From positions 1 through 19,714 of the forward strand of contig JBBIPG010000043.1 of the NCBI GenBank assembly GCA_037442925.1: a DNA stretch of 19,714 nucleotides, given 5' to 3'. Origin of the DNA: Candidatus Fraserbacteria bacterium. Lineage in GTDB: Bacteria; Bipolaricaulota; Bipolaricaulia; RBG-16-55-9. How positions within the stretch are numbered: the first letter of the stretch is position 1; the number at the start of each line of letters is the position of its first letter. The translations under genes and the position numbers were made by a program. The notes beneath the pieces were generated by a model, which was given only the letters and a program-made list of their open reading frames with translations, was not told the origin of the DNA and did not search any database. Below, piece by piece: positions 22 through 6,722 of the stretch.

Positions 22-50
22 TTGACTCCGTGAAAGACTTGTGATATTAT
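22..50 (+). promoter_or_regulatory. sigma70-type promoter with extended -10
   Basis: TTGACT (22-27), 17-bp spacer, TG at 42-43, TATTAT (45-50), directly upstream of the riboswitch aptamer. Confidence 0.8.
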
Positions 51-62
51 AACATAAATGTA

Positions 63-156
63 TCCGATAAGGGCAAACCCAGCGAAAGCTGGGGACGTAA
101 AGCCACGGGTCTGAACGCTTGAAAGGGAGCAAGTATGGCGGCTGGGCTGCCGAAGG
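63..156 (+). ncRNA. c-di-GMP-I (GEMM-I) riboswitch
   Basis: Consensus elements in order: AGGGCAAACC, CCCAGC-GAAA-GCTGGG (GNRA-capped P2), GACGTAAAGCC, CGGGTCTGA, ATGGCGGCTGGGCTGCCGA. Equivalents of G20 (g72), A47 (a99) and C92 (c150) are present. Lies in the 5' leader between the promoter and the first CDS. Confidence 0.92.
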
Positions 157-243
157 TGAGAGCACATTTCTCTTTGTTAACCACAGTGAAATCCATCTTT
201 AGCCTTGGCAATTCCTATCTTACCTCAAGGGAGGGAGTGCAAG

Positions 244-1005
244 ATGATCAAGACACGTCAGGAGAGTCAGGATGCATTGGGTTTTACTCGCAGGAGAATC
301 TTAAAGGCAACGGTTATCGGGGCAGGCTTGATAACACTAAATGGATTGGCAGGGTGTACAGAGTTCTTGCCACGGAAAGCTGAGGAGAGCGACAAAGTAG
401 CGAACTTAGAGGCACAGGGTGCGAAGATCGATAGAGATCTCTTGCAGGCGACCTTGGAGCAGTGGAGGAAGGTGGTCAGAGTTCAGAACGGACTTGAAAC
501 AACCACGGTGAGCCAGATGGCAGAATGGGAAGACATAGCGAAGCAGATGACGTTCCGTTTGCTTGACCAAGTCGATGCCAGCGGGTTAGACGCTGAGATC
601 AGCCGTGGATTGGCGGATCTTCCTGAAGAGGTGACGTTCCCCCGCCGGATCACATCGCAATTCATAGCAAAGCTAGAGGATGTTCTTAGGCCGGAGCAAG
701 TCAAGGTGTTGGAGGAGAGGCTCTCCAAGCCAGTGAAGAAATCGCAGGTCGTTGACCCTCTGTTAAGAGAAGGTGGTGTGAGTGCACACCTGCGGAAACT
801 TCTCAGTTCCGTGGAGTCACACACGGCTTCTCAAGGAGTAGTCAAGGCCCTTGGATGTCCGTCAACTTCCGTCGGAATCTGCTCCTTTGCCTTCATTGTG
901 GCCTTCACGTTCTGCGCTTTCGATTATGATTGCTCTGTGTCAGCTGGTGTCGCATCTGCCGTTTGCCTAGCTGCTCTTCTAGCGGGTGGATGCATCCAAC
1001 CATAG
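244..1005 (+). CDS. Tat-exported lipoprotein with C-terminal hydrophobic six-Cys domain (paralog A)
   Basis: ATG 244 follows GGAGGGAG, so it is preferred to TTG 205. Twin-arginine motif TRRRILK, lipobox LAG-C, helical middle domain, tail C-x7-C-x10-C-x5-C-x10-C-x8-C. Aligns with 1587-2348. Confidence 0.85.
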   Translation: MIKTRQESQDALGFTRRRILKATVIGAGLITLNGLAGCTEFLPRKAEESDKVANLEAQGAKIDRDLLQATLEQWRKVVRVQNGLETTTVSQMAEWEDIAKQMTFRLLDQVDASGLDAEISRGLADLPEEVTFPRRITSQFIAKLEDVLRPEQVKVLEERLSKPVKKSQVVDPLLREGGVSAHLRKLLSSVESHTASQGVVKALGCPSTSVGICSFAFIVAFTFCAFDYDCSVSAGVASAVCLAALLAGGCIQP

Positions 1006-1034
1006 CATATCTACTGCGGAGGTGATATTTCCCG

Positions 1035-1565
1035 ATGGGAAAGATCCTTGCTATTGTCATTCTTGCCGTCTGTGTGACACTCCCTGTTCAGGCAGTCGGT
1101 CAACCCCTGATAGGGATCACAGAGGAGTTCATCGCTGGCACGGTGGGTGCTTTGGTCGGAGCCTTTTGGGCTACGTATCCGGACTTGTTCTCCGTTTCTG
1201 GACAGGTTCCAGAGAAGATCTGTACATATCAGGAGGAGAAGAAAACCGATCCAGCGCAAGGGACTGTCACGACCATCATTACTCAAAGTCAAATGCGAGC
1301 AAATTATCGTCTGGGAGTAGGTACGTTCAGCGCAATGGCTGTCGGTTACGTCAGATTATCCAAGCACAAGGGAATTGATGATCCCTTTGGCCGCCCTGTC
1401 CTCGTCATCATAGGTTTGAATGGAGGGCTCGCATTGGCCTGTATGACATTGCCACATATTCAGCAACTTGGAGACTCTCCTGCGATCACCGTACTCAAAC
1501 TGGCCACAACTGTCGCGTTGCCTGCCCTTATCACGGGATGGTTCGCATCTGTGGGTCTAAAATAG
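1035..1565 (+). CDS. Signal-peptide-bearing multi-pass membrane protein, function unknown (candidate immunity/partner)
   Basis: RBS GGAGGTG upstream; signal peptide ending VQA; about four Gly/Ala-rich hydrophobic segments. Confidence 0.75.
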   Translation: MGKILAIVILAVCVTLPVQAVGQPLIGITEEFIAGTVGALVGAFWATYPDLFSVSGQVPEKICTYQEEKKTDPAQGTVTTIITQSQMRANYRLGVGTFSAMAVGYVRLSKHKGIDDPFGRPVLVIIGLNGGLALACMTLPHIQQLGDSPAITVLKLATTVALPALITGWFASVGLK

Positions 1566-1586
1566 ATCTTCTAAAGGGGGTACAGC

Positions 1587-2348
1587 ATGGCAGAATTGAA
1601 TCGGCGGCAGATGCTAAGGCTATTGGGAGTAGGAGGCTGTGTACTGACATTGGGAGCACTGAATGGCTGCGCTCTGCCTCTGAGATGGGATTCCTCCCTA
1701 GCAAAGGGGGAAGCAAGCAGTATGGGACTCGGTAAAGCCGAGCTCGACAGAGGCTTGGCACAAGCAACTCTCGATCAATGGAAGAAGGTGCTAAGGGTGC
1801 AGCATGGAATGGAGAACGTCTCTCCCTCAGAAGTTGAAAGACGGATTACACACGCGAAGGATCTGACCTTGCGGTTGCTGAACCACATCGATGAGATTGG
1901 CCTGAGCAAAAAGATCGATGGTGCGCTGATTGGGAGCCCAGAGGAAATCGTTGTCTCTGAAAATGATGTCTATGAAGCTACCCGCATCTTGCAAGATGCG
2001 ATGCCTGCTGATGAACTCCAAGAACTTAAGAAGCGAATACCAAGAAGAGTAAGCAAGAGCGCTGCGTTGGACCCGATCTTGAAAGAAGGTGGCGTGAGCC
2101 AACACTTCCGCAATGTCATGGCACAACTCAACGTTCAGGCATCAGTTCTTAAAACCGCCAATTCAGAAGAGGCCGAAGCAGGTCAGTTTGTAACAGCGAT
2201 GGGTAGCAATTGCTCGTGGGGCGTTGGCGTCTGTGCTGTTCTGTTTACTCTGTTACTGCTAACCTGTGGTGATGAATGCAGTCAATCAACAACTGATGTC
2301 GTAATCGCTGTCTGTTTCGCAGGCATCGTCGTGAGTTGTGGATCTTAA
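1587..2348 (+). CDS. Tat-exported lipoprotein with C-terminal hydrophobic six-Cys domain (paralog B)
   Basis: RBS AAGGGGG; NRRQMLR Tat motif; lipobox LNG-C; shares QATLxQWxKVxRVQxG and DPxLxEGGVSxH with paralog A; tail C-x6-C-x10-C-x3-C-x11-C-x7-C. Confidence 0.85.
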   Translation: MAELNRRQMLRLLGVGGCVLTLGALNGCALPLRWDSSLAKGEASSMGLGKAELDRGLAQATLDQWKKVLRVQHGMENVSPSEVERRITHAKDLTLRLLNHIDEIGLSKKIDGALIGSPEEIVVSENDVYEATRILQDAMPADELQELKKRIPRRVSKSAALDPILKEGGVSQHFRNVMAQLNVQASVLKTANSEEAEAGQFVTAMGSNCSWGVGVCAVLFTLLLLTCGDECSQSTTDVVIAVCFAGIVVSCGS

Positions 2349-2603
2349 CGTCAGGAGGATGAACGCTCTTCGGCGCGATCTTCTCCATCACGGGCTTCAT
2401 CATCATTCTGTAACGATTGACAGGCTTGGTGGGCCAAAGGTGAATGAAAGCCATGCGGGTAACTTGGACAAGGTGGGGGACGTAGCGCCGCCATGCTCGT
2501 AATGGGCCAACGCAACTGAGGAAGCTTCTCCAATCGCCTGTCCTTATCTGGATCGGGTTCATCTCGGGCGGAGTGGGAGCGACCTTACTGATCACTTCTT
2601 TGT

Positions 2604-2640
2604 GAGAGAGGAGGGTAGGGGACTGCCTTCTTCTCTCTTA
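2604..2640 (+). terminator. 15-bp stem-loop closing the riboswitch operon (probable terminator)
   Basis: GAGAGAGGAGGGTAG-GGGA-CTGCCTTCTTCTCTC; three G-U pairs form only on the + strand; GNRA loop; weak U-tract. Confidence 0.6.
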
Positions 2641-2678
2641 CAGTTCTGTGCTACACAATCACTCAGCAATGTGCCGCA

Positions 2679-2909: not shown

Positions 2910-5900
2910 TTAGCTTTGCCCTAGGGGCACACAGTTGCTCAGCGAGCTATCGCAGACATCGATGTTCTCGATGGAGAACGGCAGTAGATTTCCATTTCGG
3001 GCCTTCAGGACGAAGTCTCCAGTCTGGTTCGTCAACCTGACCTCAACAGCTCGATCTCCAACGACAACGAAGGCCGAAACCTGGGGCCACCTCTCTCGGT
3101 TTGCGTCCCCATCCATATCCATCTCTGGGGTGAAGTGAAGAGGCTGAGAATCAGGGGGATAGAAATTGACCCTGAAGGTATAGACGACCTTGCCGTCGCG
3201 AGCGGTTCCCTTCAGTAAGATGTTAGGGTTACTTCGATTTGAACCGGTCAGTTGCGCTTGCTCCGCGGAGGCATTGCCGACGACCTGGGGCTGTGAAACG
3301 TCGAGGAAGCCTCTAGGGGACAAGTTCCGGATGAGGATCTGGAAGGGATGATCGCTCGTCCAAGAAGGATCACCTTGCACGACTACTTGAAGATTGTTCG
3401 GCTTATTCCCGATGAGGAAGAATCCGGCTTGGGCAGGAAGCGGGGGCAGTGGCGGTGGTGTCTGGCTCACGGCGATCGTCTGAGAAACTGAGTTTGTAAG
3501 ACCACCGTTATCCGTGACGATGAGCGTCACCTGAGCGTTTCCTGCCCTAGAGAAACTGGTCTGCACGGTGGCTCCTGTGGCATCGGCTCGTCCGTCGCCG
3601 TTGAAATCCCACTGGTAGCGTACGATCTGGCCATCGGGGTCCGAAGAACCAGAGCCATCGAAGGTCACGACTTGATTCACAGTGGGATTCTGAGGGCTGA
3701 ACGTGAATTGAGCGATCGGCGGCTGATTGACAGGACGTTGGCTCACTTGCACCTCTTGCGCTGTCGAATGCGTTGCGCCTTGATTATCTGTGACCGTAAG
3801 CGTGACGCGGTATGTACGAACACTGGCAAAGCGCACGGTCACTCGGACGCCCTGGGCCTCGACACGGGTCGTCCCCTCAAAGAGCCAACGCCAACTCGTG
3901 ATGAACCCATCTGGATCTGAGGAGCTGGAGCCATCGAACGTGACGGAGTCATTCACGAGTGGCTGACTGGGGCTGAACGTGAAGCGTGCCACCGGCGGTT
4001 GGTTCGTGGGCTGTGAGGAAGTCACTTGGAATGACGCGACATCCCATGCGAAGTTGAGCGATGGATTGATCGACTGAATGCGCTGCGTGAGTATAGAGCG
4101 GAATGTATTTGGGTCTGTGAATGTGCTATTTCGTTGGCCGTCAAGTTGCAGATTCACAGCTCCGGAGACGAGGGTCCCATGAACGCTCTCTAGGCCTGTG
4201 GGTTCGCTGATCTGGAGACGAGAGACGCCGAGAAGGCTCGCCAGATTGTAGCTGCCGGCCCGCAGGAATGCGTTCCCCGATTCCCTGGTGGGATAGAGGA
4301 TTGTGACGAGTCCTTGAGCGTCCACATCATAGAGATAGACGTAGCCGTCGGCGTTCGTGATGAACTGAACACGGATTTCGTCCCCGACACGATAGCTCGT
4401 CCGATCCGTCTGGACATCGATGCTGAGCGTTGAGGGTGTTTGAGCGGTCACGGTGATTTGTGAGCTGTTGTTGCTCTCGTTGGATTCGCTCACTTGGTTG
4501 AAGATATCGGCGATGGCTTGGAAGGTCTCCGAGTTCGTGAGGATGGATCTCTGGAAGCTCAGGCGGACGGAAGAGCCAGCTGCCAAACCTCCCACGGTCA
4601 GGCGGTCCGAGCCGCGACTATCGCGCAGTTCAACAGTGAAGGGGCCGGCCGCCGCGTTGCCCTGGTTGACGACCGTGATGGCAAAACTGATGGGGTCACC
4701 CAGACGAGGTGCTTGAGGTGTGAATTCAAAACCGGAGATGATGAGATCGGGTAGCTGCTGAATCTGTTGTGCCGTTACTGTCAATTGTGCCGTGTTGTTG
4801 GATTCATTCGCCTCGCTCACTTGATTGAAGGGATCTGCTGTGAGGGTGAGCGTGTCGCTGGAGGCGTTCACTTGACGATTGAAGCTGATATTCGTCGAAG
4901 CTCCCGCAGCGAGGCCAGAGAAATTCTGAGTGAGGGTCCCAAAACTGTCTCGCAGTTCCACGACGAATGGACCTGCTGTCGCATTTCCTTGGTTTCTCAC
5001 CTGAGCTGTCACAGTGATGAAGTCTCCCAGACGGGGACTGCGCGGAGAAAAGTCGGCACCGATGATCGTAAGATCTGGTCGTTGAGCGATCTGAACTGTT
5101 AGGTTGAGCCTCCCGGCGCCGAACTGAGTGGGAGAGCCCATAGGGATAGCTCCTCCCTTAAGTCGGGACTCGAGGCCACTGGCGGTGAGTGTTGGGTTCT
5201 CCGAGAGCAAGAGAGCCGCCGCACCGGCCACGTGCGGAGCCGAAGCAGAAGTCCCGATGAAGGGGCTAAAGCCCGCCGTGGAGGTGGAGACGCTATCGGG
5301 TCCGGTGATATCCGGCTTGCTTCGCCCGTCTGTTGTGGGTCCTTGCGAGCTGAATGGCTGAAGCGGACCTGTCGTCCAGTTCAGGTACGAGACCGCACCG
5401 ACGGCGATGGCGGAAGCAGCATCGGCGGGCGTCACAAGGCTTCCCGCTGAGATGAAGGGATTGATGTTCTGGTTGAGATTGAAGAGCGATAGCTGTTTGG
5501 GCGAAGTGACGGTGGCGGCCTTGACGCGGAGCTCATATGTCCCACCGGAAGTCAAACGAACTGTCAAGTTTTCTGTGGGCGGTTGACTCCCGTTTTGGAG
5601 CCGCTCGGATGAAGCGACCGTCACTCCAGTGCTGCTCACGAGGAAGAGATCATAGTCTTGAGCACTCGTTGGCCAGTCTTGCCAGGTGAGGAAGGCGTTG
5701 ACGGTCTCGCCGGCTTGGGCGGTGAACTGCAATCCTTCGCGACCAGAGGCGAATTCCACAAAGGTATTGCCGTTGCTGTCCGTGGCGAATCCCTGCCAGT
5801 GGCGCAGGCCGTAGTTGCCTGCCGCGTTCACCCAGAGGATGTCGGCGGCGCGAGCCCTCTGAACAGCGGCGGCGATCGGTCCCGTTCCGTCGTAGAAGCT

Positions 5901-6722
5901 CGTGTTGAACCACCCGACAGAGTGGTTGATGATGTCCACTCCTTGCCGGATGGCCTCATCGACGGCATTCTCGAGATCGACTTCATCGGCGATCTTCATC
6001 AAGTAGAGCTGAGCGTCCGGAGCCATGTCGTAGACGATCTCTGCCACGGCCGTCCCGTGAGAGGTCGTGCTCTCCAGTCCCGTGCCACTGAAATCGAATG
6101 TCTGGGTGTTTACGGGGAGTTCTCCCCGAGATCTTGCCGTGGAGAACCCAGCGAAGCCTAAGTCGATCACGGCGATCTTCGCGCCTTGCCCTCGGAGGCC
6201 ATTGCCGTGATACGAGGAACCTCCGCTGACCCCGACTCCCTCACTCACGACTAAAGCTTGCGGTGCCAAGGGAGGCCGGATGTACGTGATCCCGGTAATC
6301 GATGCTACCTGGAGGAGGACTGCAAGGGGTGTAGTGATAGCGGAAGTAAGGGGTATCTGAAGCTCAAGGAAGTTACGCGACTGGGATCGGACAATGCTAC
6401 TTCCGGTGAGTTGAGCTGCCACAGCTGCCACAGCACCCACGATGCCCGCAGCTGAGCCGGAGGTCTGGGCGATGACCGTGATCGTGTTGCCCTGGATGGG
6501 GATGCCCGCTTGGCTGGCGGCTTGTTGGACGGCTTGGCTGCTCACGCTGCTGCTTTGCACCATCTGGAGTAGCTGGACCAAGACACTGTCTACCTTTGGG
6601 TTGGGGGTGGTCTTCTGTGCGCTCGTGGTGTGAGTGGCCTGATCCACCCAACTTGTGGCACCCAGCAGCAAGAGGGTGAGGCTTACGATTGCCAGTGTTC
6701 GTAAAATGTGCGCTTTCTTCAT
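2910..6722 (-). CDS. Secreted multidomain S8 subtilisin-like serine protease (propeptide, S8, 2x CARDB, DUF4384-like, 2x PKD, C-terminal beta domain)
   Basis: Signal peptide; catalytic motifs VIDLG (Asp), HGTAVA (His), AAGN (oxyanion Asn), GTSASAPHVAG (Ser); two PDL...NQGxAxAGPF...ESNExNN CARDB repeats; two NQPPxAxF...DGSxSSDPDG...W...V.LxVTDNxG PKD repeats; RBS GAAGGAGG. Confidence 0.95.
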   Translation of the reverse strand: MKKAHILRTLAIVSLTLLLLGATSWVDQATHTTSAQKTTPNPKVDSVLVQLLQMVQSSSVSSQAVQQAASQAGIPIQGNTITVIAQTSGSAAGIVGAVAAVAAQLTGSSIVRSQSRNFLELQIPLTSAITTPLAVLLQVASITGITYIRPPLAPQALVVSEGVGVSGGSSYHGNGLRGQGAKIAVIDLGFAGFSTARSRGELPVNTQTFDFSGTGLESTTSHGTAVAEIVYDMAPDAQLYLMKIADEVDLENAVDEAIRQGVDIINHSVGWFNTSFYDGTGPIAAAVQRARAADILWVNAAGNYGLRHWQGFATDSNGNTFVEFASGREGLQFTAQAGETVNAFLTWQDWPTSAQDYDLFLVSSTGVTVASSERLQNGSQPPTENLTVRLTSGGTYELRVKAATVTSPKQLSLFNLNQNINPFISAGSLVTPADAASAIAVGAVSYLNWTTGPLQPFSSQGPTTDGRSKPDITGPDSVSTSTAGFSPFIGTSASAPHVAGAAALLLSENPTLTASGLESRLKGGAIPMGSPTQFGAGRLNLTVQIAQRPDLTIIGADFSPRSPRLGDFITVTAQVRNQGNATAGPFVVELRDSFGTLTQNFSGLAAGASTNISFNRQVNASSDTLTLTADPFNQVSEANESNNTAQLTVTAQQIQQLPDLIISGFEFTPQAPRLGDPISFAITVVNQGNAAAGPFTVELRDSRGSDRLTVGGLAAGSSVRLSFQRSILTNSETFQAIADIFNQVSESNESNNSSQITVTAQTPSTLSIDVQTDRTSYRVGDEIRVQFITNADGYVYLYDVDAQGLVTILYPTRESGNAFLRAGSYNLASLLGVSRLQISEPTGLESVHGTLVSGAVNLQLDGQRNSTFTDPNTFRSILTQRIQSINPSLNFAWDVASFQVTSSQPTNQPPVARFTFSPSQPLVNDSVTFDGSSSSDPDGFITSWRWLFEGTTRVEAQGVRVTVRFASVRTYRVTLTVTDNQGATHSTAQEVQVSQRPVNQPPIAQFTFSPQNPTVNQVVTFDGSGSSDPDGQIVRYQWDFNGDGRADATGATVQTSFSRAGNAQVTLIVTDNGGLTNSVSQTIAVSQTPPPLPPLPAQAGFFLIGNKPNNLQVVVQGDPSWTSDHPFQILIRNLSPRGFLDVSQPQVVGNASAEQAQLTGSNRSNPNILLKGTARDGKVVYTFRVNFYPPDSQPLHFTPEMDMDGDANRERWPQVSAFVVVGDRAVEVRLTNQTGDFVLKARNGNLLPFSIENIDVCDSSLSNCVPLGQS

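Follow-up and report, generated by a model that had tools for sequence, protein, structure and literature searches.

Candidate pro-bacteriocin/immunity pairs in a cassette of cysteine-tailed Tat lipoproteins from Candidatus Fraserbacteria

ProC8, the precursor of halocin C8, is a protein of 283 amino acids exported by twin-arginine translocation (Tat), in which an N-terminal pro-domain precedes a C-terminal peptide that is freed by unknown proteolysis; the neighbours of halC8 are HalR and an ABC-transporter, according to a preprint (bioRxiv 10.64898/2026.07.27.741052). Polymorphic toxin loci, as outlined by Zhang et al. 2012 (PMC3482391), have a toxin-then-immunity gene order, strings or arrays of partner genes, HINT peptidases and cassettes that can be swapped while the 5′ part stays constant. 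Published accounts also describe SitA of myxobacteria, polymorphic lipoprotein toxins that act between related diderm cells (PMC5562445, PMC8546572), and the glycocins sublancin and glycocin F, which combine a helix-loop-helix with nested disulfides (PMC10125368). Here we analyse a 19,714-nucleotide (nt) stretch of DNA from a Candidatus Fraserbacteria bacterium of the phylum Bipolaricaulota (the window; GenBank assembly GCA_037442925.1, contig JBBIPG010000043.1), which is the entire contig C43 of a 2.07-Mb genome. At one end of the window, a cassette encodes two paralogous lipoprotein precursors, A and B, with a membrane protein, M, between them.

We consider it just probable that A and B are pro-bacteriocin/immunity pairs of the polymorphic-toxin type, with killing and release of the tail as proposals. 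We read the pairs as toxin plus immunity because relatives of the precursors are nearly always followed by a gene for a small membrane protein (at least two hydrophobic segments and no more than 260 amino acids). Such a gene lies directly downstream in 17 of the 19 loci that have both a carrier match and downstream DNA (15/15 in the scored set, plus G027:C45 and G006:C16), against 52 of 944 adjacent gene pairs in the window's own genome (5.5%; crude open reading frame calls). The exceptions are B, which has only a remnant, and G028:C142, a HINT locus that continues with an S26 peptidase gene. These counts refer to proteins other than P0002–P0004, P0009–P0014, P0017 and seven HINT proteins. Comparison adds four signs of a conflict system that lie beyond the sequence of the window: the downstream membrane gene, PT-HINT fusions, neighbouring S26 peptidases and shuffling of leaders. 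A and B are lipoproteins with twin-arginine signals and are likely to be the precursors from which membrane-active peptide toxins arise. In the mechanism that we propose, the helical carrier would hold a hydrophobic hairpin that is predicted to be stapled by disulfides; an enzyme resembling signal peptidase I would cut the flexible linker near a (V/L)-x-A motif (VKAL in A and VTAM in B), freeing the tail; the freed tail would damage the membranes of target cells, and M would protect the producer. A preliminary description of the locus had already proposed lipid-tethered pro-toxins or membrane-active peptides; the lipid-tethered precursor and the discrete, Cys-rich hydrophobic C-terminal peptide are supported, whereas kinship with halocin C8 and a generally variable tail are not.

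The precursors and their cassette

The features of the cassette, all on the forward strand, are as follows.

22–50 (+): sigma70-type promoter-like site, TTGACT-17-TATTAT with TG (promoter scan)
63–155 (+): c-di-GMP-I (GGC) riboswitch aptamer, RF03167 (covariance model)
135–383 (+): 82-codon upstream frame; its AUG lies within the aptamer and is preceded by a Shine–Dalgarno (SD)-like AAAGGGAG; it overlaps the SD and start of A out of frame
244–1005 (+): precursor A, 253 amino acids, ATG behind GGGAGGGAG; Tat motif at nt 286–306, lipobox Cys38 at nt 355–357, carrier at about residues 60–190, then a linker and the six-Cys hairpin tail (residues 205–250, nt 856–993)
1035–1565 (+): M, 176 amino acids, signal-peptide-like N terminus
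1587–2348 (+): precursor B, 253 amino acids; Tat motif, lipobox Cys28 (nt 1668–1670), helical carrier and six-Cys hairpin tail (residues 209–251, nt 2211–2339)
2363–2605 (+): hydrophobic reading frame in decay, interrupted by three stops, candidate remnants of an immunity gene
2600–2643 (+): strong closing hairpin, terminator-like (folding against shuffles)

Every part named in the preliminary description—promoter, c-di-GMP-I aptamer, A, M, B and closing hairpin—is present, although the decayed membrane-gene remnant behind B and the AUG inside the aptamer had been overlooked. The cassette is slightly more AT-rich than the genome (GC content of 49–54% versus 56%). In a run from a second study (X2), contigs are approximately 88–92% alike over 145–855, 844–1811 and 1804–2345, so the A–M–B order is kept in a relative. 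The closing hairpin (around 2600–2643) folds with a z-score of −3.67 and none of 200 shuffles folds equally well; it has no clean U tract and is not among the sites of the terminator scan. The remnant has a counterpart elsewhere in the genome: 2512–2598 is a truncated copy, 88.5% identical, of a membrane gene of 102 codons that stands alone on contig C18 (G000:C18:25660–25968), which stands behind a truncated aptamer and has similar hairpin DNA at its end. As 2599–2646 resembles the DNA immediately past the end of that gene, the closing hairpin probably arrived with the remnant. The downstream partner that B once had is probably lost.

Over 249 columns, A and B share 33% identity (E = 1e-38). 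Both carry a twin-arginine motif (TRRRILK in A and NRRQMLR in B), a lipobox (LAGC38 and LNGC28, respectively) and six Cys residues in a hydrophobic tail, as described previously. The Tat profile TIGR01409 matches 9 of 18 family members at E ≤ 0.5; one relative exceeds the cut-off of 16.7 bits, B stays below it at 11.6 bits and A has no match. The genome encodes TatC, LspA, two Lgt proteins, a DsbB-like protein, Omp85 and two S26 peptidases.

Structure prediction with AlphaFold2 gave a predicted template modelling score (pTM) of 0.68 for A, in which 74 of 253 residues have a predicted local distance difference test (pLDDT) value of less than 50, and a pTM of 0.79 for residues 47–253 of B, in which the second tail helix has pLDDT values of 52–66. 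In both models the tail is a helix-turn-helix behind a linker with pLDDT below 50. The confident fold covers only about 130 residues (60–190 in A) between disordered linkers, less than the conserved helical domain of around 170–180 residues claimed earlier. It has no invariant catalytic-type residues. The spacing of the tail cysteines is mirror-symmetric (7-10-5-10-8 in A and 6-10-3-11-7 in B), which fits a disulfide ladder across the hairpin: 57 nested Cys pairs occur in 21 non-redundant tails (27 minus 6 close relatives), whereas 2,000 randomizations gave 38.3 on average and never more than 45. For A, the predicted nested disulfides are 205–250, 213–241 and 224–230. Tail hydropathy (GRAVY) ranges from 0.5 to 2.0. 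From the models, the hairpin is also predicted to pack on the carrier; tail helix 1 appears to complete the four-helix bundle of the carrier, as the range aligned in four-helix-bundle matches reaches the end of this helix in both models.

No Pfam or NCBIfam family scores above its cut-off for A, B or M, in agreement with the previous statement that no named family with this combination is known. NF058595 (‘putative C-terminal anchoring domain’) was rejected as unspecific. Foldseek searches against the PDB and viral models returned no match at E ≤ 0.001, and the best PDB sequence match (E = 0.0035) was a three-helix-bundle entry. In the VIA wide search, the best Z scores were 8.3 (root-mean-square deviation 3.4, 119 aligned) and 8.6 (2.9, 115 aligned), both to generic four-helix bundles and within the noise range for helical models. 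Among 1.84 billion representatives searched, 18 proteins matched and 16 of these were kept; P0006 and P0018 are repetitive, unrelated proteins and were dropped as family members. The family profile matches 16 of 184 Ca. Bipolaricaulota genomes, six of them in the signal region only and not counted as members; the 10 genomes with matches beyond the signal region all belong to the order of the window, and none of the 149 genomes of the phylum outside this order matches. Within its own genome there are four carrier-bearing genes: A, B and one each on contigs C45 and C56. Scans of metagenome and genome contigs found no further loci. As leads only, the ESM Atlas offers an unnamed bacterial cluster of 71 members (0.90) and a cluster of halocin C8 (0.77 for A and 0.76 for B). 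The A/B family is real and apparently has no earlier description in the literature searched; the supplements of Makarova et al. 2019 (mBio) and of the bioRxiv preprint may list members.

Partners, leaders and the HINT subfamily

M has three hydrophobic segments in a Kyte–Doolittle scan. Of the 46 differences from its X2 relative, 39 are listed, and 24 of these fall at third codon positions (p = 3e-4) with no indels, which indicates a gene under selection. Positions 1256–1426 of M show no difference from the relative over 171 nt, although approximately 9% of sites differ in the flanks; recent exchange or an assembly effect is possible. The genes that stand in the place of M at other loci fall into several unrelated types. 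M-like genes are a wider family, present in 20 of the 35 genomes of the order, and many M-like proteins end in a motif resembling a β-strand with a terminal Phe or Ile; one locus (L088, G024:C116:7000–20000) has a tandem array of at least seven such genes with no precursor between them. S26 peptidase genes occur in two loci of relatives, several relatives are frameshifted or interrupted, and strings of small membrane genes and orphan partners are present. Broken copies, orphan partners and strings or arrays of membrane genes fit polymorphic toxin loci as characterized by Zhang et al. (PMC3482391). At L055:5814–6083, around 1 kb behind a precursor–partner pair, an open reading frame for 89 amino acids bears a resemblance, judged by eye, to a Nif11-type leader.

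Leader DNA is 78–87% shared between paralogues that have barely alignable or unrelated bodies, and the shared stretch spans the promoter, the untranslated leader and the signal DNA. In 5 of the 10 non-self leader matches, the likeness runs as far as the lipobox Cys codon or a single base past it; in the rest it breaks off 8 nt short of this codon, 12 nt beyond it or further upstream. Selection acting on the signal peptide could add to this likeness, although the untranslated leader is included. A second type of body, unrelated in sequence, carries the same leader and a Cys-rich hydrophobic tail and is likewise followed by membrane genes. It occurs at L060:3939–4991, L048:4290–5156, L049:958–1500, G000:C47 and C45, with CxxC-rich hydrophobic tails that have Pro-rich ends and are followed by one to four small membrane genes.

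One homologue carries a PT-HINT domain (E = 1.7e-17). Its carrier alone, without the leader, is related to that of A and B (P = 5.6e-5; score of 9.7, with 4.7 the highest score among 200 shuffles), and hhalign gave 97%; in a pooled search the relation stayed below threshold. The carrier–passenger–HINT architecture is found in eight proteins, one of which is labelled as an archaeal metagenome-assembled genome, perhaps through mis-binning or transfer. Across the seven proteins aligned (21 pairs, with region borders set by eye), median identity is 64% for the carrier, 34% for the passenger and 64% for HINT, and one pair has 85%, 14% and 62%, respectively.

These patterns suggest a more specific, and tentative, proposal that we hold well short of probable in its entirety: a lineage-specific peptide-delivery chassis that would form a new class of polymorphic peptide toxins. 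In it, a portable promoter and Tat/lipobox leader would be joined, by recombination at the lipobox Cys, to interchangeable sets of carrier, passenger and membrane partner; the carrier would be an incomplete helical bundle that the first helix of the passenger completes and by which it is caged; a dedicated S26 peptidase would excise the disulfide-laddered passenger; and, in one subfamily, a HINT domain behind the passenger (a Hedgehog-like order) would excise it and could ligate or cyclize it.

Several observations weigh against a reading as toxins with immunity proteins. No known toxin domain or fold was matched in the family and fold searches. Most tails are net acidic, and typical membrane-lytic peptides are cationic. 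The (V/L)-x-A-type linker motif, found before 15 of 21 tails but in only 19 of 109 background windows, was defined post hoc, after the data had been seen. Similarity among partners tracks that among tails (Mantel r = 0.14, p = 0.08) and carriers (r = 0.17, p = 0.04) only weakly, and M-like orphans occur at precursor-free sites, for example behind Lon or a β-rich exported protein. B has stayed intact although its partner gene has not. In proteins of the HINT subfamily, the HINT domain comes after the passenger and is itself followed by no more than a few to 17 residues, and the sole HINT locus seen has no downstream membrane partner. Because partner tracking is weak and M-like copies also stand at housekeeping-like sites, immunity is something that we infer, and M is a candidate for the cognate immunity protein of A.

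The tails add a further difficulty. The preliminary description had expected a conserved N-terminal domain with a variable tail, and had named tails as conserved as that domain as the observation that would speak against it. Between A and B the carrier is 38% and the tail 36% identical; in close pairs the tail is at least as conserved as the carrier (84% carrier and 91% tail for A and P0002; 83% and 93% for B and P0004); and across 351 pairs of the main family the medians are 19% for the carrier, 25% for the tail and 15% for the tail without Cys. Only a few pairs deviate, such as L053 and P0020 (48% carrier versus 29% tail). In the main family, then, tails are as conserved as the N-terminal domain, a pattern that fits a carrier co-evolving with its own passenger; in the HINT subfamily they are not.

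An unlikely alternative is kin recognition or signalling, in which the hairpin, whether displayed or released, would serve as a strain-specific identity tag or as a pheromone, and the membrane protein encoded downstream would be its cognate receptor instead of an antidote. The same gene order, diversity and cognate pairing would be expected, and the acidity of the tails, their conservation within a lineage, the six or seven hydrophobic segments of some partners, the CRP-like regulator genes upstream at three loci and the persistence of B without an intact partner all agree with it. However, no Pfam signalling domain was found in the 14 directly downstream membrane proteins scanned, and many partners have only 90–130 amino acids; PT-HINT fusion, decayed copies and arrays of orphan partners are known from conflict loci (PMC3482391).

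We regard as improbable that the tail is instead a permanent membrane anchor or oligomerization hairpin of a doubly tethered envelope protein, with the carrier as the working part and M as a complex partner or chaperone. Tail and carrier do diverge together in the main family, M-like genes occupy conserved sites, and the tails of two relatives weakly match NF058595 (18.1 and 13.9 bits versus a cut-off of 37). However, that profile matches in all 14 control genomes, the carrier lacks invariant residues of a catalytic type, tail helix 1 seems to be packed in a soluble bundle, and the patchy distribution, the many broken copies and the hypervariable passenger of the HINT subfamily also speak against it. 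Very improbable is a family of peptides that are made on ribosomes and modified after translation (glycocin-, sacti- or ranthipeptide-like) with a Cys-rich core modified in trans and the helical domain as leader: nested disulfides in a helix-loop-helix make up the scaffold of glycocins (PMC10125368) and another aptamer of the genome heads CRP, PqqD-like and radical-SAM-like genes (labelled by eye), but the cassette contains no modifying enzyme, none was recognized by eye beside related loci, and the symmetric ladder accounts for all six Cys residues.

Riboswitch, upstream frame and flanking DNA

The promoter-like site scores 10/12 with TG; the count of such sites alone is at chance level (2 in 4 kb versus 2.3 in shuffles), and TTGAC boxes lie in a similar position upstream of most other aptamers of the genome. 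The RF03167 match is full length and scores 66.8 bits, against a gathering score of 59. The aptamer has a G at the position equivalent to Vc2 G20, the determinant of cyclic di-GMP (c-di-GMP) rather than cyclic GMP–AMP; the lowest pair of P2 is G-U, and the AUG lies within P3. The genome encodes a single GGDEF protein, in which the GGDEF and NDxxGHxxGD motifs are intact, giving it the look of a canonical cyclase. There are 17 matches to RF03167 in this genome (14 over cut-off), and aptamer matches in 33 of the 35 genomes of the order, which makes this an ordinary member of the riboswitch class.

An AUG occurs at the same aptamer position in 8 of the 17 matches of the genome, three of which have it in the reading frame of the gene that follows. 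In the cassette, the SD of A is mostly paired in the predicted ensemble, but the folding is no better than that of shuffles (z of about 0), and a terminator scan found none after the aptamer. The 82-codon upstream frame is likely to be the read-out of the riboswitch: c-di-GMP binding would alter its translation from AUG135 and hence access to the start of A, a translational coupling that we infer with either sign.

Recurrent linkage to the riboswitch, which the first account proposed as a check, did not hold up. An aptamer was found at only 1 of the 18 other related loci scanned, where it precedes a CRP-like gene that lies between it and the precursor; this count is a lower bound, as several loci end close upstream. 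Other related loci have the promoter followed by (CTTAC)n in place of the aptamer. The link is real but local, and not a trait of the family. The (CTTAC)n repeats, of approximately 2–11 units, lie between promoter and SD of leader-bearing paralogues (G000:C45, C47, C56; G006, G008), and three contig ends fall within them; they are a possible site of phase variation or recombination.

Other aptamers of the genome stand in varied contexts. At G000:C21:16392–16466, an A replaces the G at the G20-equivalent position (1 of the 17 matches), which might change the ligand. The aptamer ahead of the CRP-like, PqqD-like and radical-SAM-like genes lies at G000:C36:11732–16800, in a run of genes that is broken by a transposase-like reading frame and continues with genes that, again by eye, resemble those of major facilitator superfamily transporters and transglutaminases. 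Aptamers at G000:C40, C58, C26, C27, C42 and C15 head genes for large lipoproteins that share an N terminus but differ in their Cys-rich ends, and behind each lies another exported protein, different in every case; these are possibly further precursor–partner families.

Beyond the closing hairpin, 2679–2826 contains a second promoter-like site and a short hydrophobic reading frame of around 37 codons (ATG at 2715), convergent with the following gene; similar DNA is present in run X2. That gene, at 2910–6722 (−), encodes a secreted S8 peptidase (subtilase) of 1,270 amino acids with CARDB, DUF4384 and PKD domains. It was rejected as part of the cassette, being convergent and not seen at related loci.

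Significance and comparison with known systems

The literature searched, as far as its listings show, describes no interbacterial weapon for Bipolaricaulota; if the chassis proposal is true, this would be the first conflict system described for the phylum, within that literature. Bipolaricaulota are uncultivated, and the family provides short, synthesizable hairpin peptides, each with a candidate antidote, so that killing and its specificity are directly testable. It also adds a second case, unrelated in sequence, of the layout known from halocin C8, with concrete candidate peptidases for the cleavage step. The riboswitch link adds little that is new.

Glycocins resemble the tails in having a helix-loop-helix with nested disulfides, which are predicted here. 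The tails differ in three predicted bridges, a far higher hydrophobicity and a pro-region of 200 amino acids that is a lipoprotein, and no glycosyltransferase reading frame was found in the cassette (22–2643), although such an enzyme might act in trans. In the SitA system, the cognate immunity gene lies downstream, and the warheads are mostly enzymes that are delivered by TraA/B outer-membrane exchange. Compared by description, A and B are similar to SitA in their lipoprotein form, but their passenger is a hydrophobic hairpin of 40–60 amino acids and their signal is a Tat signal.

A and B share with halocin C8 a Tat-exported precursor of similar size, an N-terminal domain and a C-terminal peptide; unlike it, they carry a lipobox and are accompanied by a membrane gene of its own downstream. 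The halocin C8 profile TIGR04449, which matches Haloferax as a positive control, has no match in the genome at E ≤ 1 and none over cut-off in the 35 genomes of the order, with three weak matches elsewhere; it is not among the matches listed (the best 25 of 27) for the 18 members or for 11 further proteins. The HalI-like profile PF22862 likewise has no match in the genome, in the 61 genomes of the class or in the 18 members, and no HalI chain is among the structure matches listed for the carrier, which are generic four-helix bundles at Z ≤ 8.6. As bacterial C8 homologues also miss PF22862, according to the preprint (bioRxiv 10.64898/2026.07.27.741052), a remote likeness to the HalI fold may exist. 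Kinship with halocin C8, as first suggested, has in its favour the ESM feature scores of 0.76–0.77 only; the layout appears to be that of ProC8, yet because both defining profiles fail we do not file A and B as halocin C8.

With polymorphic toxins the family has in common the partner gene directly downstream, cassettes that stand as orphans, partner genes in strings or arrays and, in relatives only, an associated HINT peptidase. It departs from them in that HINT is absent from A and B and, where it occurs, follows the passenger and does not precede a toxin domain, and in that the searches matched no toxin or immunity domain of the catalogue. A variable C terminus is seen in the HINT subfamily and between leader and body, but not in close pairs of the main family. 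The constant part seems to end at the lipobox Cys, such that carrier, tail and partner move together. On the evidence of its sequences, the family appears to share most of the genomic features of polymorphic toxin systems.

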